Shown: positions 38,576 through 52,057, counted from the first letter of the stretch. The stretch is DNA of 64,000 bases from Clostridiales bacterium (GCA_012841525.1 DUUO01000005.1:64104-128103); one strand, 5' to 3'. The notes: generated by a model not told the origin, from the sequence alone. Program-made: numbers and translations.

Positions 38576-40666
38576 ATGATGAAAGAAAGCAAAATTTTTA
38601 AAACCACAATAGGTGGAAGAGAAGTAACAGCTGAAATAGGAGGTTACTGCTCTCATAGTAATGGACAATGTATTGTACGATGTGGCGATACAGTGGTTAT
38701 GACAAATGTAACAATGTCAAAAGCACCAAGAGATAATGTTGATTATTTCCCACTTGGTGTTGATTATGAAGAAAAAATGTATTCTGTCGGCAAAATCCCT
38801 GGAGGATATAAAAAAAGAGAAGGTAGAGCAAGTGATAAGGCTATTTTAACTTCGAGATTGATTGATAGACCTTTAAGACCATTATTTCCAGATGGTTTGT
38901 ATAATGATGTATCAGTAATATGTACAACATTATCTGTAGACACAGACATACCACCAGAGGTATATGCTATGTTAGGTAGTTCTATAGCACTTTCTGTGTC
39001 TGATATTCCTTTTCAAGGTCCAACAGGTTCTGTTGTCGTTGGACTTGTTGATGGAAAATATATTATTAACCCTAATTCTGAAGAAAGAGAAAAATCAAGA
39101 TTATCCTTGACACTAAGTGGCACAAAAGATGCCGTTATGATGGTTGAAGCGGGTGCTTTAGAAATTTCTGAAAAAGAAATGCTAGATGCAATTTTATTTG
39201 GTCATGAAAAAATAAAAGAAATAGTTGCTTGGATAGAAGATATTCAAAAAGAAGTTGGAAAAGAAAAAATTATGCCACAATTAAAAGTAGTTGACGCTCA
39301 ACTTAGAAATGATGTGGAAGCCTTTGCAAAAGAAAAAATTGATTATGTATTTGATACTTTTTCAAGACAAGAAAGAGAAAAAAGAGAAGAAGAAGTTAAT
39401 GCTGAAATTAAATCTTATTTTGAAGAAAAATATCCAAATTCATCTTCTGACATAAATTTAATTTTAGAAGACATGAAAAAGGATAAAGTCAGAACTATGA
39501 TTACCGAAAAGGGAGTTCGTCCAGATGGAAGAAAAGTTACCGAGGTTAGAGATATTTGGTGTGAAGTAGGCCTTTTACCAAGAGTTCACGGTTCAGCAGT
39601 TTTTACCAGAGGACAAACTCAAGTTCTTACCGCGACAACACTTGGCACTATTTCAGAAGTTCAACGTCTTGAAACTTTAGATGAAGAAGTCTTTAAGAGA
39701 TATATGCATCACTATAACTTTCCTGGATACAGCACTGGTGAAGCAAGGCCAATCAGAAGTCCAGGCAGACGTGAAATTGGACATGGAGCTTTAGCTGAAA
39801 GAGCCTTAGAGCCAGTATTGCCATCTGAAGAATTTTTCCCATATGCAATTAGAACTGTTTCAGAAGTTTTATCTAGCAATGGTTCAACATCTCAAGCAAG
39901 TGTATGTGGATCAACTTTATCACTTATGGATGCTGGTGTTCCAATTAAAGCCCCTGTAGCAGGCGTAGCAATGGGCTTGATAAAAGATGTAAAAAATGAT
40001 GTTATACATATATTAACTGACATTCAAGGTATTGAAGACTTTTATGGGGATATGGACTTTAAGGTTGCTGGGACCAAAGATGGTATTACTGCAATACAAA
40101 TGGACATAAAAATTTCTGGAATAAATGAAGAAGTTTTAACTCGTGCACTTGAGCAAGCAAGAATCGGAAGATTGCATATTTTAGATAAAATGGTTGCAAC
40201 CATTCAAAAACCTCGTAAAAATGTAAGCAAATATGCACCTAAAATCATTAATTTTAGTATAAATCCCGATTATATAAAAGATGTAATTGGTTCTGGCGGT
40301 AAAATAATTAATAAAATTATTGATGAAACAGGTGTAAAAATTGATATTGATGATGATGGCAATGTTTTTATTGCATCTCAAGATTTAGAAATGGCAAACA
40401 AAGCAAGAGAAATGATTGAAAAAATTACTTATGAACCAGAAGTTGGTGATGAAATTATAGGAAATGTTTCTAAAATTTTTGATTTTGGTGCAATGGTTGA
40501 AATTTCTATTATTAAAGAGGGGATGATACACATTAGCAAACTTGTAAAAGGAAAAAGAGTTGAAAAAGTTACTGATGTTTTAAATATTGGAGATAAAGTT
40601 AAAGCAAAAGTTATAAAAATTGATGATAAAGGAAGAATTGATCTTCGTTTAATTGAAAAACTATAA
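38576..40666 (+). CDS. pnp: Polynucleotide phosphorylase
   Basis: Two RNase PH domains (REGRASDKAILTSRLIDRPLRPLFP, GRREIGHGALAERAL), a KH domain (GSGGKIINKI) and a C-terminal S1 domain. Confidence 0.96.
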   Translation: MMKESKIFKTTIGGREVTAEIGGYCSHSNGQCIVRCGDTVVMTNVTMSKAPRDNVDYFPLGVDYEEKMYSVGKIPGGYKKREGRASDKAILTSRLIDRPLRPLFPDGLYNDVSVICTTLSVDTDIPPEVYAMLGSSIALSVSDIPFQGPTGSVVVGLVDGKYIINPNSEEREKSRLSLTLSGTKDAVMMVEAGALEISEKEMLDAILFGHEKIKEIVAWIEDIQKEVGKEKIMPQLKVVDAQLRNDVEAFAKEKIDYVFDTFSRQEREKREEEVNAEIKSYFEEKYPNSSSDINLILEDMKKDKVRTMITEKGVRPDGRKVTEVRDIWCEVGLLPRVHGSAVFTRGQTQVLTATTLGTISEVQRLETLDEEVFKRYMHHYNFPGYSTGEARPIRSPGRREIGHGALAERALEPVLPSEEFFPYAIRTVSEVLSSNGSTSQASVCGSTLSLMDAGVPIKAPVAGVAMGLIKDVKNDVIHILTDIQGIEDFYGDMDFKVAGTKDGITAIQMDIKISGINEEVLTRALEQARIGRLHILDKMVATIQKPRKNVSKYAPKIINFSINPDYIKDVIGSGGKIINKIIDETGVKIDIDDDGNVFIASQDLEMANKAREMIEKITYEPEVGDEIIGNVSKIFDFGAMVEISIIKEGMIHISKLVKGKRVEKVTDVLNIGDKVKAKVIKIDDKGRIDLRLIEKL

Positions 40667-40699
40667 TTGTATTTTAATTTAACTTAAATAAAAAGATTC

Positions 40700-40727
40700 A
40701 AAACCCCTGAAATAGGGGTTTTGTGCA
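40700..40727 (+). terminator. Strong rho-independent terminator after pnp
   Basis: AAAACCCC (40700-40707) / GGGGTTTT (40715-40722) with a 7-nt loop. The GC core is conspicuous in this AT-rich DNA. Confidence 0.8.
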
Positions 40728-40825
40728 TTAAAAGTGTTTATACTCTAAAATTTTATCTATTTAATCTTTATGTTGACTATATATTGCTTAACTTATATTA
40801 TATAATTATAAAGTCAAAGGAAACT

Positions 40826-43800
40826 ATGAATAAAAAAAAGAGATTTTTATATTCAATATTTTTTATTTTGCTAATTTCCATTAGCATGTTTTTATTTGCT
40901 TGTAATAAAGGAACTAGCACACAAAAAGACTTATTATTGTTAAAAACCGATGTATCTCAGCTTACTTTTATTGAAGATGAAGTACATCTTGATGAAATAG
41001 CTTTTGAATATATTGACATCAATGGTAATGTCATAGAATTAAATGGAAATGATTTAGAAATTTCAGAAACAGACAGAGAATCTCTTAACACACCTGGTTT
41101 TAAATCAATTACTTTCAAATATAATAATTCAGAACACATAGTGTGTTTTCTTGTTCAAGAGAAACCAACAATATATAACTACAATTTGACTTTTGATGCA
41201 AATGGTGGATTTTTTTCAACAATAAATGCTGAAACTCTATCTATTACTTCAGGGGAAATTTTAAGATCACCACCAGAAACTCCAGTGAGAGAGGGGTATG
41301 ATTTTGCAGGCTGGTATCCAAATTATCATTTTATTGAATCTGATAAACTTATTACACCATACAAAATAAGTCCTGAAGTAACTTCATTTGTAGCAAAGTG
41401 GTTAAGTACAAAACGCCATGAGGTGTCTTATAAGAAGCAACAGGGCGAACAAATTTCAAACATCAAAAAAATTGATAATATGACCATCTCAGATGGTGAA
41501 TCTATACATTTAATAAACAAAAATGAGTTTCAAGATTATGATATACTCATAAAAAACAATTCTGTTGATGAATATTTAAAATATAATTTTGTTGGATATA
41601 AAATTGAAACATTTGATGAATCTACTGGTGAAAATGTTGTAAAATTCTTACCAAGCAACCACACTGACGCAATAGAAATTTCAAATAAAACGACAATAAT
41701 TTTAGTGTTTGAAATAAATAAATATGATGTTACTTTTACCGATGATAATAATGTAGAGCTTAAAAAAATAAAAGTTGAATATGGAAAAAAGGTTAACACA
41801 GAAGACATACCAGAAAAACCTTCGATAACTGGTTATGAAACATATTGGTTTAATAAAACATTGAATAAAGATTATAGGGTTGAAGATATTGAAAATGTAA
41901 CGCGCAACATATCCATTCAACTTAAAAAAACAATCATTAGAATTACTGTAAATTTTTATGATGAAGACAACATTAAACTTACAAACATCTCTAATGTATA
42001 TGAATATGGAAAGAGTATTGGAGCAAATAAAACCGTTCCACATAAAAATGGATATGATGGTAAATGGAGATTTAATGTTAATGACATAGATACTTTTTAT
42101 GAACCAGTGCAATTACAAAATTTAATATTAAACATTGCTCTATATCCTCAAATAGAAAGTAGTAAACAAATTAGTTTTTATGCAACTTATACAAAAAAAA
42201 GATACACTTTAAGATTTCATTATGATTTGCCTGAGCAAGAAGGTTTAATTTTTGAAAAAGAAATTGAATATGGAGATAGAATTAATGCAAAAGCCACTAT
42301 GAACTCCAATCTTTTTGCTTTAAAATATGTAGGAGCTTCTGGGCAATATTTTTCAGGATATGATTTTTCGTTATATAAAAATTCTACTTGGCATTACTCT
42401 ATTGATAAAACTAATCCATCAACTATTGTTAACGATAATCATAGTTTTGATGACCAAAATGCTATTTTAAATCAAAATCCACCATGGGATCGTAGCGTGT
42501 ATGATTTTTATTTCAATCCAATAAAAGAATTTAATGAAAGCAATATATCGTTTTCATATCCAGACCCTGAGAATTTTGATGTTTTATTGTTAGCTTCTGA
42601 TGACATAATAAAAGTTGAAATTTCAAATTCATTGGTGAAAATCTTAAACACGTCAAAGCTCATGGAATACTATCCAAGACATACTATCGATAAATGGGCA
42701 TATAACGAAACCGTTGATATTGATGACAACAAATTGATTTATCAAAGCTATAAAAACAATTATAAATATTTTAGAGATGATGTTGTATATTATGATGCAA
42801 AATTTTACAAACTTTCTAGTGATGAAAGCATAAATAATGCACCTGGAGTTGACGATTCATGGGAAATTTTATCTGGCATTAAAACAAAACAAGTTGAAAT
42901 TAGTTCTGATGATCTATATAAATTTAACTTAAACGAAAAACATTTATTCAGTGAAGACCCTTTAATTAATAATTCAATATATCCAATCTTCAAAGAGCGT
43001 AAATTTTCCTTGCAAATATATGATCAAACCTTTCAAACAACTCCAATTGCAACAAATGGTAGATATATATATAGTTATGAATTTATTAAAAAATATGAAA
43101 ATTTAGACTACACTTATGATGATGAAATTAATTTTAATTCGTTGATTAATCAATACTTATCTTCACAAGAATATTCCGATGGGACAGTATCAAATTTTGA
43201 ATTGATGGGACTATTTGAAGATAAAGCGTTCCAATCTGTTTCATATAATAGAACGAGTAGCATTAATATAAAAACTGATATAAAGCTTTATGCAAAATGG
43301 ATTGATCTAAATTTTGGTAGCGACGGTTTGGTTTTTTCTAAAATAGATAATGAAACTGCTGCTTTAATAGACTTTGAGCCACAAATAAATACTTTAAATA
43401 CAAAAATCAATTTAAATCTTGTAATACCGAACTTTTGGCAAGAAACAAAAGTTAAAGTTATTAAGCAGAACGCTCTTAAAAATTTAATAAAATATTCAAA
43501 TATTGAAATCGAAAATTTCACTCTTCCTGAATTTTTAAGTGAAATAGAAAATGATGAATTAAAAAATATTAAAGTAAATAATTCAATTTTAATAGCAAAT
43601 ACAAACACTAAATTTAATGTTGAAAATAATATATTGTATGAAAATATAGAGGGCGGTCAACGAAATATCGTTAAAGTTCCAATTAATATTGATATTATGG
43701 GAAATATTGCTCAGGTGTTTTCTAATGTATATAGCATTAATTCATATGCGTTTGCAAATTTCAAAAACATTCTAACACTGACAACATCCGACCATCCTTC

Positions 43801-44374
43801 ATTAAAGTTTATTGATGATTTTGCTTTTTTTGCTAGTTCCATTAGTGAATTTAGCTTAGGTGAAAATATTACTTATCTAGGACATCATGCTTTTGCAAAT
43901 TGTGAAAACCTTGATCAAGTTGAGTCAGTGATGTTCTCTGATAAAATTGATTTTGGAGCAAATGTTTTTGAAAACACTAAATGGTTAATTAGGGAAAGAG
44001 CGAGCCATAAACAAATAATTATTGGCAATATTTTAGTTGAAAGCATTATAAATTCAACTGATACAACTATTGAAATTGATGACAAAGTTAGCATTATTGC
44101 TGATAATGCTTTTGTATTTAATGTACAAGATAATCAACCATTTAACGATATTACAATAAAATTTAGAGAAAGCTCTAATATTAATTCGTTTGGAAACAAT
44201 GTTTTTACAAATACAATTAAGAAGTTAATAATACTAAATGACGATGATATTATACTAACTGAAACTTCATTGAATAATGTTTTACTTCTTGAAACAAAAC
44301 AGTCTAGAGTAGAGTATTTCAATATGCAACTTGCTAATCTTGAAAATAGTACATTGCCAATAGTTGGAGTTTAA
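40826..44374 (+). CDS. Large surface lipoprotein with Listeria/Bacteroides-type (Flg_new) repeats and a BspA-type leucine-rich-repeat C-terminus
   Basis: Start at ATG 40826 after AAAGGAAA. Signal peptide plus lipobox (MNKKKRFLYSIFFILLISISMFLFAC). Repeats of the type LTFDANGG...REGYDFAGWY and YDVTFTDD...ITGYETYWFN. C-terminal pattern INSYAFANFKNI...IDDFAFFASSISEF...LGHHAFANCENL. The track start at 40721 runs through the pnp terminator and is rejected. Confidence 0.75.
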   Translation: MNKKKRFLYSIFFILLISISMFLFACNKGTSTQKDLLLLKTDVSQLTFIEDEVHLDEIAFEYIDINGNVIELNGNDLEISETDRESLNTPGFKSITFKYNNSEHIVCFLVQEKPTIYNYNLTFDANGGFFSTINAETLSITSGEILRSPPETPVREGYDFAGWYPNYHFIESDKLITPYKISPEVTSFVAKWLSTKRHEVSYKKQQGEQISNIKKIDNMTISDGESIHLINKNEFQDYDILIKNNSVDEYLKYNFVGYKIETFDESTGENVVKFLPSNHTDAIEISNKTTIILVFEINKYDVTFTDDNNVELKKIKVEYGKKVNTEDIPEKPSITGYETYWFNKTLNKDYRVEDIENVTRNISIQLKKTIIRITVNFYDEDNIKLTNISNVYEYGKSIGANKTVPHKNGYDGKWRFNVNDIDTFYEPVQLQNLILNIALYPQIESSKQISFYATYTKKRYTLRFHYDLPEQEGLIFEKEIEYGDRINAKATMNSNLFALKYVGASGQYFSGYDFSLYKNSTWHYSIDKTNPSTIVNDNHSFDDQNAILNQNPPWDRSVYDFYFNPIKEFNESNISFSYPDPENFDVLLLASDDIIKVEISNSLVKILNTSKLMEYYPRHTIDKWAYNETVDIDDNKLIYQSYKNNYKYFRDDVVYYDAKFYKLSSDESINNAPGVDDSWEILSGIKTKQVEISSDDLYKFNLNEKHLFSEDPLINNSIYPIFKERKFSLQIYDQTFQTTPIATNGRYIYSYEFIKKYENLDYTYDDEINFNSLINQYLSSQEYSDGTVSNFELMGLFEDKAFQSVSYNRTSSINIKTDIKLYAKWIDLNFGSDGLVFSKIDNETAALIDFEPQINTLNTKINLNLVIPNFWQETKVKVIKQNALKNLIKYSNIEIENFTLPEFLSEIENDELKNIKVNNSILIANTNTKFNVENNILYENIEGGQRNIVKVPINIDIMGNIAQVFSNVYSINSYAFANFKNILTLTTSDHPSLKFIDDFAFFASSISEFSLGENITYLGHHAFANCENLDQVESVMFSDKIDFGANVFENTKWLIRERASHKQIIIGNILVESIINSTDTTIEIDDKVSIIADNAFVFNVQDNQPFNDITIKFRESSNINSFGNNVFTNTIKKLIILNDDDIILTETSLNNVLLLETKQSRVEYFNMQLANLENSTLPIVGV

Positions 44375-44383
44375 TTTTATTAT

Positions 44384-47300
44384 ATGTCCCCAAAAAACAA
44401 ATTAAAAAATCAAAAACTTTTACAAAATCAAAAACTTTTACAAAATCATGCTGATATATATCATTTGGAATTTGATGATTTTTCTAGATTAACTTTTTTT
44501 AACTCTTTATCAAAAGAAGATATTAGATATCTTATTACAAAATATAAAATAGATTTAACAGTCGAAGAATTTGAAAATTTAAAACTCATTTACAAAAAAA
44601 GCTTTCCTACAATATTGGAACTAAAAGTATTGGCAAAATATTGGGAAACAAGCCTAAGCCTTGTAAGTGCTCATATAAACAAAATAGAAATTAAATCTGG
44701 CTCCAATAAAATTAATGATACTCTAAAAAAAATTAATATTTTAAGAAAAAAACAAAACAAATCAAACATTTTATCTTTAAATGAAATATTTAATTTGTAT
44801 GACAAAAATTTGGAACAAAAAAAAATAAAAAGTTTAAATATGAGTGACAACTTACAAGCTTTGTCATGCTCAGCATATACTCCTAAAGGGAAAAAAACAT
44901 ACAGTTTAAATAGTTTTACAAGTTATGAAACCCTTGATAACAACTCATTATACAAAGCTATGATAAAAGGTTATGAGCATGAATTTGATTTAATGTTTTC
45001 TTTTCGATTTGATTTAAATAAAAGTTTATTAGAAAACTACATTGAATATGGATTTAAATCGTCAAATGCATGGATTTCTAGTATTTCAATATCAAGTAAA
45101 TTAGAAGAAAATAAAATGAATGTTTTTGATGTCTCAACAGTAATAGGCTTTGCAGACAAAAGCAAAATTCATCATTTTAATTTAAGTAATAACGATAAAA
45201 TTTTATTAATTCGTTTAAATAATGAAAAAAATGATTTACTTAATGTTTTGAATTTGTCTATGAATTGTTTTTTTAAAAAACATAACAGTTTCGCTGTGAT
45301 TAATGATTATAGTTTGTTTTTTAATTTAACAAATATTACAAAAAGCTTCAATATAAACATTAATTTGCTTAAAAAACAAAATATAGACTTAGATGAGTTT
45401 TTATTTTCGGAGCAATTAAAATATATTGCTGTGATAGTAAAAGAAAAACACATTACTGAGCTTTTAAGTGCTGCAAAAATTAAAAATCTTGATATTTTTG
45501 AAATTGGACAGATTAAAGATAATAATTATTATGAAATGTTTTTAAACGGAAATAAGGTTTTTTCAATTTACAATGAATTGCTCCATAACAAACCTAAACA
45601 AAATAATGTGGCAATAATAGATGAAGATATGAGTTATGATGCTATCCATTCTATGCTAGGTATAAATTTCAAAGAAACCGCTCTCAAAGATCTAAAAACA
45701 TTAAATACCGATTGTGATAGTGTTGCATTAAATTCATATTTGTCAGGAAACACTATAGTTGGACCTTATTTAGGAGAAACTCAAGCTACAACTTCTCAAG
45801 CTTTTTCCATATATCCAAATTATTTTAAAATAAAAGATTTTAAAGTTGGCATCGCTTTTTCTGAATCTGACAAACAAATAAACTTCATTAAAACTATTTC
45901 TACATTAACTACAACTTTGCTAAAAATAATTACAAAAGGCTATCCTATACATCAAGTTGTTTTAGAGGTTTTTTTGTTCAATAATAAAAATGATAAACCT
46001 AAAGAAATTGGGGAATTCCTATCTACGGCACTTGCCTGTTATGAATTTCAAAGTTTAACATCAATTCCTGTATTTAAACCTAAATTTAAGTTTCTAGATA
46101 GTCCTTCGGAAAATTCTTATCTTTATGTAAATGGTTATGGATATACAAACGGAAAAATTGTAAACAATGTATTTAAACAAGGAGATAAAATCTTTCGCCT
46201 TTCAATTGAAAAAGATTCTGATGGTTTGTCAGACTTTAACAAAATTTTGAAGCTATCAAGCACGATAACCATGAATATTGAAGTAGGTAACATTACAGCA
46301 GCATCTTATGTTGAAAAAAACATCATTAATACAATTATCATTAATACTCTTAATGCTAATTTAGGTTTTTCCTTTTCTATTATGGATAAATCATTCTTAC
46401 ATAGCGATTCTTTTGAAATTCTTCTTGCGATAAAAGATGTATCTGAAATTACAGCTTTTGATCTAGATTATATAGGTGTTGTTGATGGCTCTGGTGTAAT
46501 TCGATTTGCAAATTTTCAAATTACAAACTCTGAAATTCTTAAACAATTAAACAAAAAAACATTAACTAAATTAGAAAGCACAAAAAAAACAGAAAACAAA
46601 AACGTGCCCAAAATAATTCCCAAAATTAAAAAATCAAAATCAAATGCTTTAATTATATCGTTCGATAGATGTTCTATTTCAATATATTCAAATATTTTGA
46701 CATCCATAGGATTTAATGTAAAAGAAAAATTACTTGCGCCTAATTTTGTAATTACTGATTCATTAATTAGAGATTTGCGGGATAGTATTACTAAGTCAAA
46801 TATTATTTTAATAACTGGTGATATTCCAAATGAAAATCTTAAATATTATAATCATTTAATAAATATAATCAGAACTCCTAGTGTTTTAGATGCAATTAAT
46901 CAAGCATTGCATTCTTATAATGCTCTTATTTTTGCTTCTGGGGTAGGGGCGAAAATTTTATTTCAGCTTGGATTTATTGAAATGGGGAATTCTGAAGAAA
47001 AACCAAAATTTTCCAATTTCAATCAAGTTGAAACTCCATTAAATAAATTATTTAGATTTTCTTTAATAAATAAAAATAATTTATGGTTAAAAAATACAAC
47101 TATTAATTGTTGTAACTGTTCAATTAGTAGCAAAAATAATCATTTTAAATTACCACTTATAGAAATCGAAAAAATGTTAAAAAATGGACAAATTATAGCT
47201 CAATATAATTATGATAAATTTGCTATAAGCTCTAATCAAAAAAATATAAAAGATTTTATGGATTTATCGCCCGTTGGAATAACATCACCAAAAGGTAATA

Positions 47301-47404
47301 TTTGTGGTTTTTTGCCAAGTATTGAAAAATGTATACACACTTCTATAGAAAATTATCTTCTACTTGTTGAAATGTTTACTAATGCTTACAACTATTTAGA
47401 TTAA
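44384..47404 (+). CDS. FGAM synthase-like (PurL+PurQ fusion-like) protein with degenerate catalytic motifs, putative pseudoenzyme
   Basis: 1006 aa, no signal peptide. Collinear resemblance to PurL: DLTVEEFENLKLIYKKSFPTILELKVLAKYWETSL vs the ...EF..I...LGR.P...E...F...WSEHC region, LMFSFRFD vs LNSLRFG, FSEQLKYIAVIVKEK...LDIFEIGQIKDN vs SESQERMLLVVEKG...IG.VTD, ITAASYVEKN vs AAHD.SDGGL. Resemblance to PurQ: ALIFASGVGAKILFQLGFIE vs LG.CNGFQ.L...GLLPG, GITSPKGNICGFLPSIEK vs GI.N..GNVLGMMPHPER. That it is a real ORF is near certain. The family call is by eye. Confidence 0.6.
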   Translation: MSPKNKLKNQKLLQNQKLLQNHADIYHLEFDDFSRLTFFNSLSKEDIRYLITKYKIDLTVEEFENLKLIYKKSFPTILELKVLAKYWETSLSLVSAHINKIEIKSGSNKINDTLKKINILRKKQNKSNILSLNEIFNLYDKNLEQKKIKSLNMSDNLQALSCSAYTPKGKKTYSLNSFTSYETLDNNSLYKAMIKGYEHEFDLMFSFRFDLNKSLLENYIEYGFKSSNAWISSISISSKLEENKMNVFDVSTVIGFADKSKIHHFNLSNNDKILLIRLNNEKNDLLNVLNLSMNCFFKKHNSFAVINDYSLFFNLTNITKSFNININLLKKQNIDLDEFLFSEQLKYIAVIVKEKHITELLSAAKIKNLDIFEIGQIKDNNYYEMFLNGNKVFSIYNELLHNKPKQNNVAIIDEDMSYDAIHSMLGINFKETALKDLKTLNTDCDSVALNSYLSGNTIVGPYLGETQATTSQAFSIYPNYFKIKDFKVGIAFSESDKQINFIKTISTLTTTLLKIITKGYPIHQVVLEVFLFNNKNDKPKEIGEFLSTALACYEFQSLTSIPVFKPKFKFLDSPSENSYLYVNGYGYTNGKIVNNVFKQGDKIFRLSIEKDSDGLSDFNKILKLSSTITMNIEVGNITAASYVEKNIINTIIINTLNANLGFSFSIMDKSFLHSDSFEILLAIKDVSEITAFDLDYIGVVDGSGVIRFANFQITNSEILKQLNKKTLTKLESTKKTENKNVPKIIPKIKKSKSNALIISFDRCSISIYSNILTSIGFNVKEKLLAPNFVITDSLIRDLRDSITKSNIILITGDIPNENLKYYNHLINIIRTPSVLDAINQALHSYNALIFASGVGAKILFQLGFIEMGNSEEKPKFSNFNQVETPLNKLFRFSLINKNNLWLKNTTINCCNCSISSKNNHFKLPLIEIEKMLKNGQIIAQYNYDKFAISSNQKNIKDFMDLSPVGITSPKGNICGFLPSIEKCIHTSIENYLLLVEMFTNAYNYLD
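44408..44448 (+). repeat. Perfect 18-bp in-frame tandem repeat (2 copies plus 5 nt) at the 5' end of the PurL-like gene
   Basis: aatcaaaaacttttacaa at 44408-44425 and 44426-44443, then aatca. Encodes NQKLLQ-NQKLLQ-N. Confidence 0.9.
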
Positions 47405-47462
47405 AAACATATTATTTCTATGTTATAATAATATATATAAAAGTTATTTGAGAGAGGTCTAA

Positions 47463-47969
47463 ATGAAAATAGCTCTTTTAGTTTTGTTTCCATTAATTGC
47501 TGTTATAACACTAATATGGAGTGTTTTTTGTATGATAAAGATTTATAAATTAAATCAAAAATTTAAATCTTCTAAAGTTTTGCTTAAATTAAAATCTAGA
47601 CAAACTCTGCCAATCATAGCAATTAGTCTGCTTTCAATATTTTTAATATTGGATATAATTTATTTAGGAATAAAAAAAGAATACGCAATCGGCTTTTCTC
47701 TTTTTGTGATAATAATTAGTTTTATTTCATTATTTGGATTTGTTTTATCATTTAAGTCTGGCATCCTAGATTCAGGTTTAATTATACCTTATAAATTTAT
47801 TTCTAAAGACAGCAATTTTTCATTTAGTATAGACAAAAATCACATTTGTTTCTACGGAGACAAAAAAGGATTTGATACAATAACTTCAGCTATTACAAGA
47901 CTTTATTTTGACAGTGAAAATAAAAATGAACTTTTAGAAACATTAAACAGCTTGAAAAGTGATTCTTAA
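47463..47969 (+). CDS. Small integral membrane protein (three predicted TM helices plus a ~70-aa soluble C-terminus), function unknown
   Basis: Hydrophobic segments at about aa 3-25, 49-71 and 75-97. GAGAGAGG RBS. Possible extended -10 (TGTTATAAT) in the 58-bp gap upstream. Confidence 0.6.
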   Translation: MKIALLVLFPLIAVITLIWSVFCMIKIYKLNQKFKSSKVLLKLKSRQTLPIIAISLLSIFLILDIIYLGIKKEYAIGFSLFVIIISFISLFGFVLSFKSGILDSGLIIPYKFISKDSNFSFSIDKNHICFYGDKKGFDTITSAITRLYFDSENKNELLETLNSLKSDS

Positions 47970-47981
47970 AAGAAACATAAT

Positions 47982-49169
47982 ATGCCTAATAAAAAATCGC
48001 AATTTTTAAAAAATAGAATAGAAGAGTACATTTCTATTTTACCATTAATTAGTCTAAAATCATTTAAGTTTCCATTAAAAAATGATTACATTATTTCTAT
48101 TCAAAACAAATTAAAAAAAAATGAAAACATCGATAATATTGATAAACACATACAAAATTTCGAACATGCAATTAACCGTTCTTTAATGAGTATTTGTGGG
48201 TTTGGTATTTTTAATTTTTTGCCTAATAAAGTTGAATGTTTAGTTGAAATAGAGGATAAGGTATATTCTTTTAATGGACAAACTAATGGATTTTTCAATG
48301 TTAAACTTATTAATAGTGATAACAAAATTGTTTGTGACAAGAAAACAATTAATAATGGATTAATCTCTCTTAATTTTACTGATAATAATGAAATGTTTTT
48401 TATCGCAGATAATAAAAAATTTTTCATAAAATCTGATGTCTATGCAGGAAAAAAACAACAAAAAATAAAAATATTTGACACATATATTTTAGGCGATAGC
48501 GTTAATGCTATAATGGAATCTAATTCGAAAATTTTAAACATAAAGCAAAGTATTTCTTCACTGATTAATGACAATAAATTTAGTTTTACATATATTTTAG
48601 ATCGAAAATGCTCTGATTCTTTTACTTTTGTTTTAAATTTTGATAAACCACAAAAACTATTAAATAAGCATAAAGATTTTTGTTATATGTTGTATGAGTA
48701 TGAAGGGTTTAGCATTATTACTGGTGAAAATTCCATAGGATATGATAATAAAATTGAATATGCTTTCAAAAAAATAAATAATAAAAATGGAATAATAAGA
48801 GAATTAATTGAATTTACTATTCTTTTTAATCCAAATAATTCTTCGGAAACACAAAAACAAATAATTAATCAACTTTATTTGAAGAGCAAACCATTAGTTA
48901 AAATAATATCAGATAAAATAATTGATGATATATCTTTATATAAAACTTCGAACGAAAAAATTATTTTAAATAATATATATTTGGCAGAAAATAATATAGG
49001 AATTATTATTCAAATAGAAAATATTTCTAGTGAAGAGGAAATAGCAAAAATTAATTATGCTAATCTTGAACCAAAATATGTATTAAATGATAATCTAGAC
49101 AAAAAAGAAAGATGTTTTTCGGGAGTAAAACTAAAATCAAAAGAAAAAATGTTTTTACTTATGCAATAG
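47982..49169 (+). CDS. Hypothetical protein (395 aa, no signal peptide or TM), function unknown
   Basis: Long uninterrupted ORF 12 nt after the preceding gene. I recognise no motif. Beta-rich, Asn/Lys/Ile-rich composition. Confidence 0.55.
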   Translation: MPNKKSQFLKNRIEEYISILPLISLKSFKFPLKNDYIISIQNKLKKNENIDNIDKHIQNFEHAINRSLMSICGFGIFNFLPNKVECLVEIEDKVYSFNGQTNGFFNVKLINSDNKIVCDKKTINNGLISLNFTDNNEMFFIADNKKFFIKSDVYAGKKQQKIKIFDTYILGDSVNAIMESNSKILNIKQSISSLINDNKFSFTYILDRKCSDSFTFVLNFDKPQKLLNKHKDFCYMLYEYEGFSIITGENSIGYDNKIEYAFKKINNKNGIIRELIEFTILFNPNNSSETQKQIINQLYLKSKPLVKIISDKIIDDISLYKTSNEKIILNNIYLAENNIGIIIQIENISSEEEIAKINYANLEPKYVLNDNLDKKERCFSGVKLKSKEKMFLLMQ

Positions 49170-49207
49170 TGAAAAAATGGTATATAATTTATATGTTGCA
49201 AATGTAG

Positions 49208-49291
49208 TGGTGCGGTTGATGGGACTTGAACCCATACGGTATTTACCATACGCCCCTCAAACGTACGCGTCTGCCATTCCGCCACAACCGC
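49208..49291 (-). tRNA. tRNA-Leu (anticodon GAG), type II with long variable arm, CCA encoded
   Basis: Reverse complement reads GCGGTTG-TG-GCG-GAATGGCAGA-CGC-G-TACGT-TTGAGGG-GCGTA-TGGTAAATACCGT-ATGGG-TTCAAGT-CCCAT-CAACCGC-A-CCA. All four stems pair and the T-loop is TTCAAGT. Confidence 0.9.
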
Positions 49292-49525: not shown

Positions 49526-52057
49526 ATGTTATCATATACAAAAGATGTTCAAAAAGCATTAAGCATAGCAGAAGGTATTGCTAGTTCATACAATGAAAAG
49601 ATTAATACTGACCATATACTTTATGGTCTTGCAAGTGTGGACGGTTCATATGCTCAGGCTATTTTAAAAAAATTAAATATTTCACCTTTGTTTATAAAAA
49701 AACAAATTGACTCTAATCCTAGTAGGGTAATTACTGATTCAATTTCATTTACCAACAATGCAACAAATGCATTAAATTACGCAAGCTCTATGGCAAATAG
49801 ATTTAGACAAAAATCATTTGATACACACCATCTATTACTTGCTATTGCAACAGAAAAAAACACCAATGCTTCAAATATTTTAAAATCAGCAGGAGTTACT
49901 TATAATACAATTCAAAGTTTAACCGAAGAATATTTAAAAAATGACTCAATAAATTCCGATAGGGATGATATTTCAATTGAGGACATATTTAATAATTTTT
50001 TCAGTGATATGAGTTTTCCAAATATTGGCTTTTCATCCAGTGGATTTAGGCGTCCTGAACGTCCTGAAAATAGATTTAATCCAAGAAATGAAGCAAATGC
50101 TACTCAAAAAAACAATAGCCCTCTTGATGACTTTGGAGAAGATTTAACAAGCTTAGCAGAAAAAGGAGAAATTGACCCAGTAATTGGACGTGAAGATGAA
50201 ATTAAAAGAGTAATTCAGATTATGTCTAGAAGAAAAAAGAATAATCCAATTTTAATAGGAGAACCTGGAGTAGGTAAAACAGCAATAGTCAATGGGCTTG
50301 CTTTAGCAATAGTTAATAATGAAGTTCCTGAGATGTTAAAAAATAAAAGAATTTTCAGCTTGAATATGAGCACAATGGTCGCTGGAACTAAATACCGTGG
50401 AGACTTTGAAGAAAGATTAAAAAATGCTATTGAATCGCTAAAAGATGGCAAAACATTACTTTTTATTGACGAAATTCACACCATTGTAAATGCAGGAAGT
50501 TCTGAGGGTGGAACTACCGCAGCAAATATATTAAAACCAATATTAACAACTGGAGCATTTCCAATTATAGGAGCGACAACAATTGATGAATATAGAAAAT
50601 ATATAGAATCTGATCCTGCTTTAGAAAGAAGATTTCAAACAGTTATGATAAATCCTCCAAGTGTTGAAGATACTATTGAAATTTTAAAAGGCTTAAGAAA
50701 AGAATATGAAAAACATCATAAAGTTGCAATTAGCGATGAGGCTTTAGTCGCTGCTGCAAAATTGTCTGATAGATATATTATGGATCGCTTTTTGCCAGAC
50801 AAAGCAATCGATATCATAGATGAAGCATGCAGTAAAATGGTCAATGAAGAATTTACAAGCCCAGATAAGCTTAAAAACCTAGAAGATAAAGTTAAAAATT
50901 TAGAAAAAGAGATTGAAAATGCAGTTTTGAAAGAAGAATATAAAAATGCTTATGATTTACAAGTAGAAAAGAAAAAAACAACGGCTAAATTAGATGAATT
51001 AAAGAAAGAATGGAGTCAAAAAGCATCAAAAAAACTCATTTTATCAGCAGAAGATATTGCAAGTATTGTTTCCGAATGGTCAGGCATTCCTGTTACTAGC
51101 CTAACAGAAGAAGAAACAGAAAAATTAAAAAGATTAGAATCAGATTTAAAAAAATATGTTATTGGGCAAGATGAAGCAATTGCTTCAGTTGCAAACGCTG
51201 TAAAAAGAGCAAGATCTGGAATTAAAGATCCCAATAAGCCAATAGGCTCATTTATATTTTTAGGGCCTACAGGCGTTGGAAAGACCGAATTAAGTAAGGC
51301 TTTATCAAAAACTGTTTTTGGCGATGAAAACTTTATGATCAGACTTGATATGAGCGAATATATGGATAAAATTAATGTATCAAAGCTAATTGGTGCTGCA
51401 CCTGGATATGTTGGCTATGATGAAGGTGGACAATTAACTGAACAAGTTAGAAGAAAACCATATAGTGTTGTTTTGTTTGATGAAATTGAAAAAGCACACC
51501 CTGATGTTTTTAATATACTATTACAAATATTAGATGATGGTAGATTAACAGACAGTAAAGGTAGGGTGGTATCATTTAAAAATACTATTATAATTATGAC
51601 TTCTAATATTGGTGCTTCTTCTTTATCAAGCACAAAAAAAGTAGGCTTTGGCGAAACTACTCAAAAGGCAAGTTTTGAACAATTAAAACAAAAACAATTA
51701 GAAGAACTTAAAAAAACAATGAAGCCTGAGTTTATAAATAGAATTGATGAAATAATCTTTTTTGATAGTTTATCTAAAGAATCTTTAGAGAAAATCATCG
51801 ACATTTTATTCGAAAACTTAAAAAATACAGTAAAACAAAAAAATATTGAAATATCCTTTGACAATAGTGTTAAAGATTTAATATTAAAAGAAGGAACAAA
51901 TGAAGAATATGGTGCAAGACCATTAAAACGAGCCATAACTAAGTATATAGAAAATCCATTAAGCGATGCAATAATAAATTCTGAAGTAAAAGAAAACACT
52001 AAAATTATAGCTTATGTAAAAGATAATAAGGTTAAATTCAAAACAGAAAAAAAATAA
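49526..52057 (+). CDS. clpC: Clp ATPase, ClpC-type (two AAA+ modules)
   Basis: Two Clp_N repeats, Walker A GEPGVGKTA and GPTGVGKTE, short UVR-like middle region, ClpP-docking VGF loop. AAGGAGG RBS. Confidence 0.9.
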   Translation: MLSYTKDVQKALSIAEGIASSYNEKINTDHILYGLASVDGSYAQAILKKLNISPLFIKKQIDSNPSRVITDSISFTNNATNALNYASSMANRFRQKSFDTHHLLLAIATEKNTNASNILKSAGVTYNTIQSLTEEYLKNDSINSDRDDISIEDIFNNFFSDMSFPNIGFSSSGFRRPERPENRFNPRNEANATQKNNSPLDDFGEDLTSLAEKGEIDPVIGREDEIKRVIQIMSRRKKNNPILIGEPGVGKTAIVNGLALAIVNNEVPEMLKNKRIFSLNMSTMVAGTKYRGDFEERLKNAIESLKDGKTLLFIDEIHTIVNAGSSEGGTTAANILKPILTTGAFPIIGATTIDEYRKYIESDPALERRFQTVMINPPSVEDTIEILKGLRKEYEKHHKVAISDEALVAAAKLSDRYIMDRFLPDKAIDIIDEACSKMVNEEFTSPDKLKNLEDKVKNLEKEIENAVLKEEYKNAYDLQVEKKKTTAKLDELKKEWSQKASKKLILSAEDIASIVSEWSGIPVTSLTEEETEKLKRLESDLKKYVIGQDEAIASVANAVKRARSGIKDPNKPIGSFIFLGPTGVGKTELSKALSKTVFGDENFMIRLDMSEYMDKINVSKLIGAAPGYVGYDEGGQLTEQVRRKPYSVVLFDEIEKAHPDVFNILLQILDDGRLTDSKGRVVSFKNTIIIMTSNIGASSLSSTKKVGFGETTQKASFEQLKQKQLEELKKTMKPEFINRIDEIIFFDSLSKESLEKIIDILFENLKNTVKQKNIEISFDNSVKDLILKEGTNEEYGARPLKRAITKYIENPLSDAIINSEVKENTKIIAYVKDNKVKFKTEKK

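Follow-up and report, generated by a model that had tools for sequence, protein, structure and literature searches.

Why would a bacterium keep, directly behind a surface lipoprotein, a purine-biosynthetic enzyme that has been stripped of its catalytic motifs? The question is raised by a stretch of 64,000 nucleotides (nt) from a Clostridiales bacterium (GCA_012841525.1, DUUO01000005.1:64104-128103; hereafter the window), in which the interval from pnp to clpC holds four open reading frames (ORFs), all in the same direction, and one tRNA gene. The ORFs, here called genes A to D, span 40721-49169. An earlier note, made from the sequence of the window alone, had described a four-gene cluster between the pnp terminator and tRNA-Leu, and the ORFs, the hairpin and the tRNA were all found as it described them. 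The note had also framed the cluster as accessory-looking, in the geometry of a tRNA insertion hotspot, and this part did not survive the comparison with related genomes given below.

The reading that we favor, with a probability of roughly 0.55, is that the cluster is a vertically inherited operon of uncultured gut Clostridia in which a dead purL-C pair stands behind A, and in which B (the dead PurL) is kept as a non-enzymatic adaptor. Judged by its sequence relationships, the module is real, conserved, and so far undescribed among bacterial pseudoenzymes; its mechanism is what we infer from those relationships. In this bacterial lineage, selection has long preserved a PurL that is dead throughout, and the operon that it shares with a surface lipoprotein is fixed. 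A conserved purL-C pair also emerges from the comparison in several families of Clostridia, and a false lead is removed, as the stretch is no mobile island. We add here that B-C originated from a purL-C pair and that it occurs, in another family, with no A beside it; we also identify D and describe the glycosidase context. The four genes, with the evidence by which each was identified, are as follows.

40826-44374, + strand: gene A, surface lipoprotein of 1182 amino acids (aa); lipobox, Flg_new, a CBM5/12-like stretch, and C-terminal BspA-type leucine-rich repeats (LRRs)
44384-47404, + strand: gene B, catalytically dead paralogue of PurL (formylglycinamidine ribonucleotide (FGAM) synthase), 1006 aa; TIGR01857 score, alignment and fold match
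47463-47969, + strand: gene C, membrane protein with three predicted transmembrane (TM) helices, 168 aa; hydrophobic helices and charge of the loops
47982-49169, + strand: gene D, remnant of a glycoside hydrolase family 38 (GH38) alpha-mannosidase, 395 aa; match to a profile of GH38 proteins of the family

Gene B is a dead relative of PurL

B is homologous to the single-chain FGAM synthase of clostridia (TIGR01857; PDB 1t3t, the large PurL of Salmonella), and it descends from that enzyme. A profile of 11 B proteins matches the large PurL chains of the PDB with an E value of 1.6e-17, and Foldseek, run with a low-confidence model of B, returned entries of the 1t3t type at E 1e-18 to 1e-19, the best matches being FGAM synthetase at 3e-19. 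The order of the domains is that of PurL, namely a linker, a PurM-like double domain (a pseudo-dimer) and a class I glutaminase-like domain, and the ancestral downstream gene, C, is kept as well. About 23 columns are invariant over the 11 B proteins, including the blocks GNI(T)AA, G.GFSF, EYLGV.D, GQI and SPDG. Unlike the clostridial enzyme, however, B lies outside any pur operon, in a genome that has another purL, and its TIGR01857 score of 82.4 bits falls far short of the trusted cut-off (1057), which puts it below membership.

The losses are extensive. A PurS-like N-terminal domain of about 170 aa is missing from all 11 B proteins, and so are the motifs of the site that binds ATP and formylglycinamide ribonucleotide (FGAR), i.e., DHCRH, HNHPTEIEPFGGA..GGAIRDP (HNHP..GGA), GRDGxGGA, NDFGAGG, ESQER and GGKDS, the GRDGxGGA motif having gone through a deletion of about 30 aa. 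The same motifs are all kept in 27 full-length PurLs of relatives. In the glutaminase triad of the window's B, Cys is replaced by Gly and His by Ser, and the Glu column alone is kept; one B protein of the relatives has a Ser at the position of the nucleophile. As the PurS-like domain, every ATP/FGAR-site motif and the glutaminase nucleophile are gone, B cannot make FGAM, and the dead FGAM synthase of the earlier note is thus borne out.

The genome of the window (G000; 1.52 Mb, 82 contigs, 96% complete) carries purF, E, C, M, N, H and D elsewhere, together with a 1237-aa purL that belongs to a pur operon and has all of the synthetase motifs. Of 25 family genomes that were sampled, at least 12 encode a B-type protein of about 1000 aa in addition to a normal purL elsewhere, and in at least ten family genomes such ORFs stand at 17-27% identity. 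Word-indexed searches with B or with the B alignment returned three close relatives only, the candidates being swamped by low-complexity, AT-rich words. When 1.84 billion representatives were searched exhaustively with a profile of B, B-type proteins of about 1000 aa came up in about 30 clusters; about 45 of the best 150 matches were motif-dead PurLs, some of them full-length.

Lesser and different losses were noticed in other PurLs. The only full-length purL of the window's genome (contig C26, L035:4464-8177) has itself lost the glutaminase nucleophile (GLGGGMEAL versus GICNGFQAL), while GHVER is kept. The same change of Cys to Gly or Ala is found in purL of the sister species (G001), of genus g3 (G018a and G003) and of G016, and PurLs without the glutaminase Cys make up about 15 of the best 150 representative matches. 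No separate purQ was found alongside the Cys-less full-length purL. These Cys-less enzymes suggest that FGAM synthesis in these gut Clostridia may be ammonia-dependent. A PurL in family f8 (G262, L113:7720-11229) shows another combination, in that all of the synthetase motifs are missing and the glutaminase Cys and His are kept; it adjoins the gene for formate-tetrahydrofolate ligase. In family f11 (G102, L112:7799-11518), a full-length dead PurL of 1239 aa is flanked by gyrA and a recX-like gene, and A and C are both missing from its vicinity.

Gene C and the origin of the B-C pair

C contains three hydrophobic helices, and its loop 1 has eight K or R residues and no D or E. From these charges, the positive-inside rule places the N-terminus outside and the 75-aa C-terminal domain in the cytoplasm. 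The small membrane protein of the earlier note is therefore a predicted 3-TM protein. DUF5673/bPH was matched weakly by two of nine C homologues (best E 0.011), with no match for the window's C, and in the literature searched there was no description of a PurL-linked small membrane protein with a PH (pleckstrin homology)-like cytoplasmic tail.

The position of C is telling. It is a single-copy gene, present in 34 of 301 sampled genomes of the order and spread over seven families, and it stands always directly after B or after an intact purL. The order purH-purD-purL-C, with all purL motifs intact, occurs in five families (f29, f19 (G131), f40, f24 and f1; loci including L139-L146). Family f1 is that of the window, and there, in genera g3 and g10, the run purF/E/C/M/N/H/D/L closes with a full-length purL and C comes next. 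Genes for a polysaccharide deacetylase and a protein like SSB (single-stranded DNA-binding protein) come after PurL-C in g3, g10 and f24.

The tree of C tracks taxonomy, not the type of partner. C beside B in f1 is sister to C beside PurL in f1 (support 92/90), and one genus of f19 holds a sister pair of C genes of which one stands beside a live PurL (G131) and the other beside a dead PurL (G177; support 99/97). Because C comes right after intact purL in five families and its tree tracks taxonomy, B-C is a purL-C pair with a dead enzyme partner. That partner went dead after another purL took over, and the C tree speaks against a duplicated B-C pair. In the tree of PurL, B is monophyletic (support 100) and lies among the C-carrying PurL lineages, and the working PurLs of the B-bearing genomes sit in other clades. 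A first tree had hinted that B was specifically sister to the PurLs of g3 and g10; with more taxa the node became an unresolved polytomy, and this placement was given up.

A dead PurL followed by C also exists outside the family of the window. In f19, a dead PurL of 1004 aa and then C lie behind the gene for valyl-tRNA synthetase, with no LRR lipoprotein, so that the link to A is specific to the window's family. The dead PurLs of f1, f19 and f11 cluster together (support 99), with a common truncation point in the N-domain and a common loop deletion. This clustering is likely to reflect long-branch attraction, and an independent origin of the dead PurL in f19 was not rejected by the approximately unbiased (AU) test (p = 0.117).

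An ancestral order of A, pur operon and C, from which A-B-C would have arisen by deletion, was considered and rejected. A gene for a transketolase subunit stands upstream of purF in G003, and the scheme also fails in G022, where the 1414-aa lipoprotein upstream of the pur operon is a paralogue of A that belongs to another conserved locus, common to G014.

Gene A and the conservation of gene order

The N-terminus of A (MNKKKRFLY...LFAC; MNKKKRFLYSIFFILLISISMFLFAC) is a lipoprotein signal peptide with a lipobox, and the protein matches Flg_new (8.7e-13) and LRR_5 (1e-10) above the Pfam cut-off, in agreement with the surface lipoprotein of the earlier note. Full-length orthologues are present in at least 13 genomes of the family. 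Flg_new and LRR_5 exceed the Pfam cut-off, and the lipobox L-[AVF]-[AG]-C is present, in 11 of 11 orthologues, two of which also give a weak match to CBM_5_12. In these features A resembles the surface proteins with BspA-type LRRs or Listeria-Bacteroides repeats, but its orthologue group is set apart from them by a fixed position after pnp and by its coupling to B.

An A orthologue immediately precedes B at each of the 12 family loci that carry B. Eleven of these loci have A-B gaps of -14 to +17 nt, and in G002 the two ORFs overlap. C follows B in five genera (g1, g5, g6, g9 and g17), with spacings that range from an overlap up to 62 nt. The TAG of B and the ATG of C are contiguous in G017. 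The sister species has rpsO-pnp-A-B-C-D-tRNA-Leu-clpC, the identical order. Synteny elsewhere, the lack of which the earlier note had named as fatal to its proposal, is thus found for both adjacencies. In the window itself the gaps are 9 nt (A-B), 58 nt (B-C) and 12 nt (C-D), and a terminator scan gave no convincing terminator in any of the three.

Between G000 and G001, the ratio of nonsynonymous to synonymous substitution rates (dN/dS) is 0.18 for A, 0.23 for B, 0.26 for C and 0.22 for D, compared with 0.055 for rpsO, 0.08 for pnp and 0.11 for clpC, at a dS of about 1, which is near saturation. All four genes are under purifying selection.

Surface proteins of the BspA-type LRR/Flg_new kind are hugely expanded in the family, with 15-44 matches to the A profile per genome of 1.3-2.6 Mb, and the matching ORFs reach 5780 aa. 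A paralogue of A of 1410 aa is found at a second conserved locus in G022 and G014 (L077:2649-6893 and L080:5114-9346), where the order is an Hsp33-like gene, a 504-aa gene, an LRR lipoprotein and the A-like lipoprotein. In G022 a purine permease and the pur operon come immediately after this locus, an adjacency that is probably coincidental.

What a dead PurL may be kept for

The probable role of B is that of an adaptor without enzymatic activity, connected both to C and to lipoprotein A. It would survive for a non-catalytic property, for which the best candidate is the contact with C implied by adjacency, and it may thus keep a contact that PurL once had with the cytoplasmic tail of C. We would put the binding of C by B at somewhat less than an even chance. 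The idea of the earlier note, a surface protein connected through a membrane component to a cytoplasmic pseudoenzyme, would fit the predicted topology, in which the tail of C is cytoplasmic. In the family of the window, B would moreover be produced together with A through tight start/stop coupling. Since the mature form of A lies entirely outside the membrane and B lacks an export signal, the two could be in direct relation only before export. The likeliest direct role of B would then be to handle the A precursor of about 1150 aa before its export, as a holdase or a membrane-targeting adaptor for a long, beta-rich chain; even so, we give this role a rather low probability. A relation to A is favored over signaling through C because B persists without C in four genera, and never without A in the family.

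The analogy is with Asp1-3 of Streptococcus gordonii, non-catalytic cytosolic proteins that resemble carbohydrate-binding proteins and pass an adhesin precursor to the membrane export machinery (bioRxiv 10.1101/219105). They are likewise encoded beside one giant adhesin. The analogy is functional only and concerns the proposed role of B; Asp1-3 have no relation to B in sequence or fold, and A, unlike the adhesin system, has an ordinary lipoprotein signal peptide. Neither SecA2 nor SecY2 is present in the cluster, and no search elsewhere was aimed at them.

Reuse of a dead PurL has a viral precedent. The vGAT/vFGARAT proteins (ORF75) of gammaherpesviruses are PFAS/PurL homologues that lack the catalytic triad, are unable to sustain purine synthesis, have been reused non-metabolically, and recruit active PFAS (PMC7605207). 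They were the sole class of PurL pseudoenzyme found described, and no bacterial pseudo-PurL appeared in the literature searched. B is likewise a PurL/PFAS homologue without the triad. However, vGATs are viral tegument proteins captured from a eukaryotic host, whereas B is a bacterial protein that arose within the organism's own purL lineage and whose links are to a membrane protein and a lipoprotein. A more speculative extension, which we would not expect to hold in full, is that C tethers PurL at the membrane and that the dead B is an adaptor which delivers or regulates the giant LRR lipoprotein, so that B would be a bacterial counterpart of vGAT with a different job.

Several observations weigh against the adaptor. 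All of the genomes are metagenome-assembled and close kin, and the counts given here are not independent observations. No C was found in four genera that keep B (g4, g15, g16 and g2). A occurs without B in G015, G008 and apparently g3, which makes B dispensable in some lineages, and shortened forms of B are found in G002 (707 aa) and G024 (900 aa). As C is absent from those four genera and A from the B-C pair of f19, no single partner of B is universal. The four-gene unit of the earlier note therefore holds for the adjacencies A-B and B-C but is not fixed, D being confined to the window's genus. An AlphaFold model of B from a seven-sequence alignment, with a predicted local distance difference test score (pLDDT) of 59, is good for fold assignment only, and a binding surface cannot be read from it. 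Finally, with its ordinary signal peptide A should need no special export factor.

Some of the same observations suit a different account, in which B is a functionless relic, an old purL that was stranded by C after a second purL took over, came to stand behind A by accident, and is now decaying. All of the catalytic motifs of B are gone; it evolves fast, on very long branches; it has been lost or truncated in G015, G008, G002 and G024; and many other motif-dead PurL paralogues exist in different contexts. Nonetheless, frames of about 1000 codons persist in at least ten genera at 17-27% identity, in genomes of 27-30% GC, where stop codons arise easily, the dN/dS of 0.23 between congeners is that of a constrained gene, and the short A-B gaps have been kept despite many surrounding rearrangements. 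We consider decay of this kind an unlikely explanation of B.

The PurLs described above form a natural series, from intact PurL through PurL without the glutaminase nucleophile to fully dead PurL. The series makes it possible to ask, with cloned genes, which non-catalytic property of PurL (perhaps the contact with a small membrane protein) merited keeping.

Gene D, glycosidases and other functional readings

D has no match in Pfam or NCBIfam. With a profile built from 28 GH38 proteins of the family, residues 52-146 of D align to positions 587-683 and residues 277-369 to positions 869-959, out of 988. Both D orthologues score 26 bits on this profile, versus 7.1 for the best of 200 shuffles. The two collinear matches identify D as what is left of a GH38 alpha-mannosidase, its C-terminal ~40%, the catalytic N-domain being gone. 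The likeness to GH38 lies in this collinearity with the last part of the family's enzymes and in an intact GH38 at the same position in G009. The difference is that the catalytic domain (Glyco_hydro_38N) is not in D, and D is thus no enzyme of GH38; no Pfam GH38 model was significant. An AlphaFold model of D from a two-sequence alignment was unusable (pLDDT 38), and D was placed by the profile instead.

Other genera have intact glycosidase genes where the window has D. In G009, the gene after C is the intact GH38, which belongs to a distinct subfamily, the one resembling D; behind this GH38 come the genes of an MFS_2 sugar transporter and of a small LRR_5 lipoprotein. In G005 and G020, two genes come after C at spacings of 22 and 4 nt, a GH2 beta-mannosidase-like one and a GH29 fucosidase; G017 has a GH36-like gene there. 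The glycosidases after C in these three genera (g9, g5 and g17) have no signal peptide. A glycosidase link to C is suggestive, and the operon may act in a context of host-glycan foraging.

It is less easy to make foraging the whole function, with A binding glycans or glycoproteins (of the N-glycan type), B-C coupling this to uptake or to cytoplasmic exo-glycosidases, and D a decayed mannosidase. The glycosidases after C, the GH38 remnant in D and the weak CBM5/12-like stretch in A orthologues are what such a locus would predict. Examined as a polysaccharide utilization locus, however, the window's own cluster has no transporter, no regulator and no active glycosidase, and the GH38, GH2, GH29 and GH36 genes of its genome are on other contigs. 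The glycosidase families differ from genus to genus, and the genera without C (g4, g15 and g16) have unrelated downstream genes. Moreover, these genomes are rich in glycosidases, and the chance of such adjacencies was not quantified. A dedicated foraging locus is for these reasons an improbable description of the cluster.

More doubtful still is that B has gained a new catalytic or ligand-sensing activity, built on the PurM-like fold from non-classical residues. The fold is indeed kept, and the invariant columns of the 11 B proteins could be taken as the mark of such an activity. However, the conserved blocks are structural ones that real PurLs also keep, the nucleotide-binding loops (GRDGxGGA and GGKDS) are deleted or replaced, and conserved polar residues that would form a new cluster were not identified.

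The cluster is not an inserted element

The surroundings of the four genes, and the signals and repeats within the interval, are listed below.

38576-40666, + strand: pnp (polynucleotide phosphorylase), upstream flank; 696-aa ORF, 69-87% identity to the gene preceding A in G001, G016, G024, G015 and G018
40699-40723, no strand: GC-cored hairpin, the pnp terminator, bidirectional-looking; 10 pairs, 5 of them GC, in the terminator scan; sequence CAAAACCCC...GGGGTTTTG
40773-40801, + strand: promoter-like site before A, TTGACT-17-TATTAT; a consensus match only (10/12), such sites being no more frequent here than in shuffles
44408-44448, + strand: in-frame 18-bp tandem repeat (NQKLLQ x2) at the 5' end of B; one unit in the protein P0001
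49208-49291, - strand: tRNA-Leu(GAG), found by ARAGORN; 38 nt past D, with its 3' end pointing toward the cluster
49526-52057, + strand: clpC, downstream flank; 843-aa ORF, identity 80% to the neighbor in G001 and 54% to that in G015

The neighborhood is old. Besides the window's genus and its sister species, rpsO-pnp-A is found in G016, G024, G015 and G018, making four genera in all (g1, g16, g15 and g3), in which this order is ancestral. tRNA-Leu(GAG) is downstream of the cluster in three genera (G001, G016 and G015): in G016 it lies 52 nt past B on the opposite strand, as in the window, and G015 has it past pnp-A and before clpC. By this shared order the tRNA is an old, conserved downstream neighbor, not an attachment (att) site. 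No second copy of its 3' end was found in the window with probes of 32 and 16 nt at up to three mismatches, and no integrase or recombinase domain in A to D, the sole ORFs between pnp and the tRNA; both absences had been noted before and hold in the window. Genes A to D have no match to PADLOC or PHROGs, and B has none in plasmid or phage collections.

The composition of the cluster, which the earlier note had seen no obvious reason to call foreign, gave a divided answer. In tetranucleotide distance from the genome, the cluster ranks at the 99th percentile among windows of 8.5 kb, and GC at first and second codon positions (GC1 and GC2) is low. GC at third positions (GC3) is ordinary, the cluster genes lying at the 14th to 72nd genome percentile. 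The outlying tetranucleotides are thus due to low GC1 and GC2, not to foreign DNA, and low GC1 and GC2 with ordinary GC3 is the signature of weakly constrained proteins rich in N, K and I in an AT-rich genome.

A horizontally acquired island integrated at the 3' end of tRNA-Leu, in favor of which stand the orientation of that tRNA, the tetranucleotide distance and the low GC, is very improbable given the same gene order beside pnp and tRNA-Leu in several genera, the missing integrase and att repeat, the normal GC3, the lack of plasmid or phage relatives, a C tree that tracks taxonomy, and the confinement of A and B to the family with a divergence that matches genus structure. On this comparative evidence, the stretch appears to be an old, vertically inherited, lineage-specific operon, and the insertion hotspot of the earlier note has to be withdrawn.

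Start of A and a repeat in B

GC makes up about 27% of the window, which gives clean reading frames in genetic code table 11. In the ORF list, A starts with a TTG at 40721, which falls within the terminator hairpin; judged by the sequence upstream of it, which offers an AAGGA ribosome-binding site, the ATG at 40826 is the predicted true start. Near the 5' end of B, the NQKLLQ repeat has two units in the window and one in P0001, a 99%-identical protein of 1000 aa from another assembly, so that the number of copies varies between strains.

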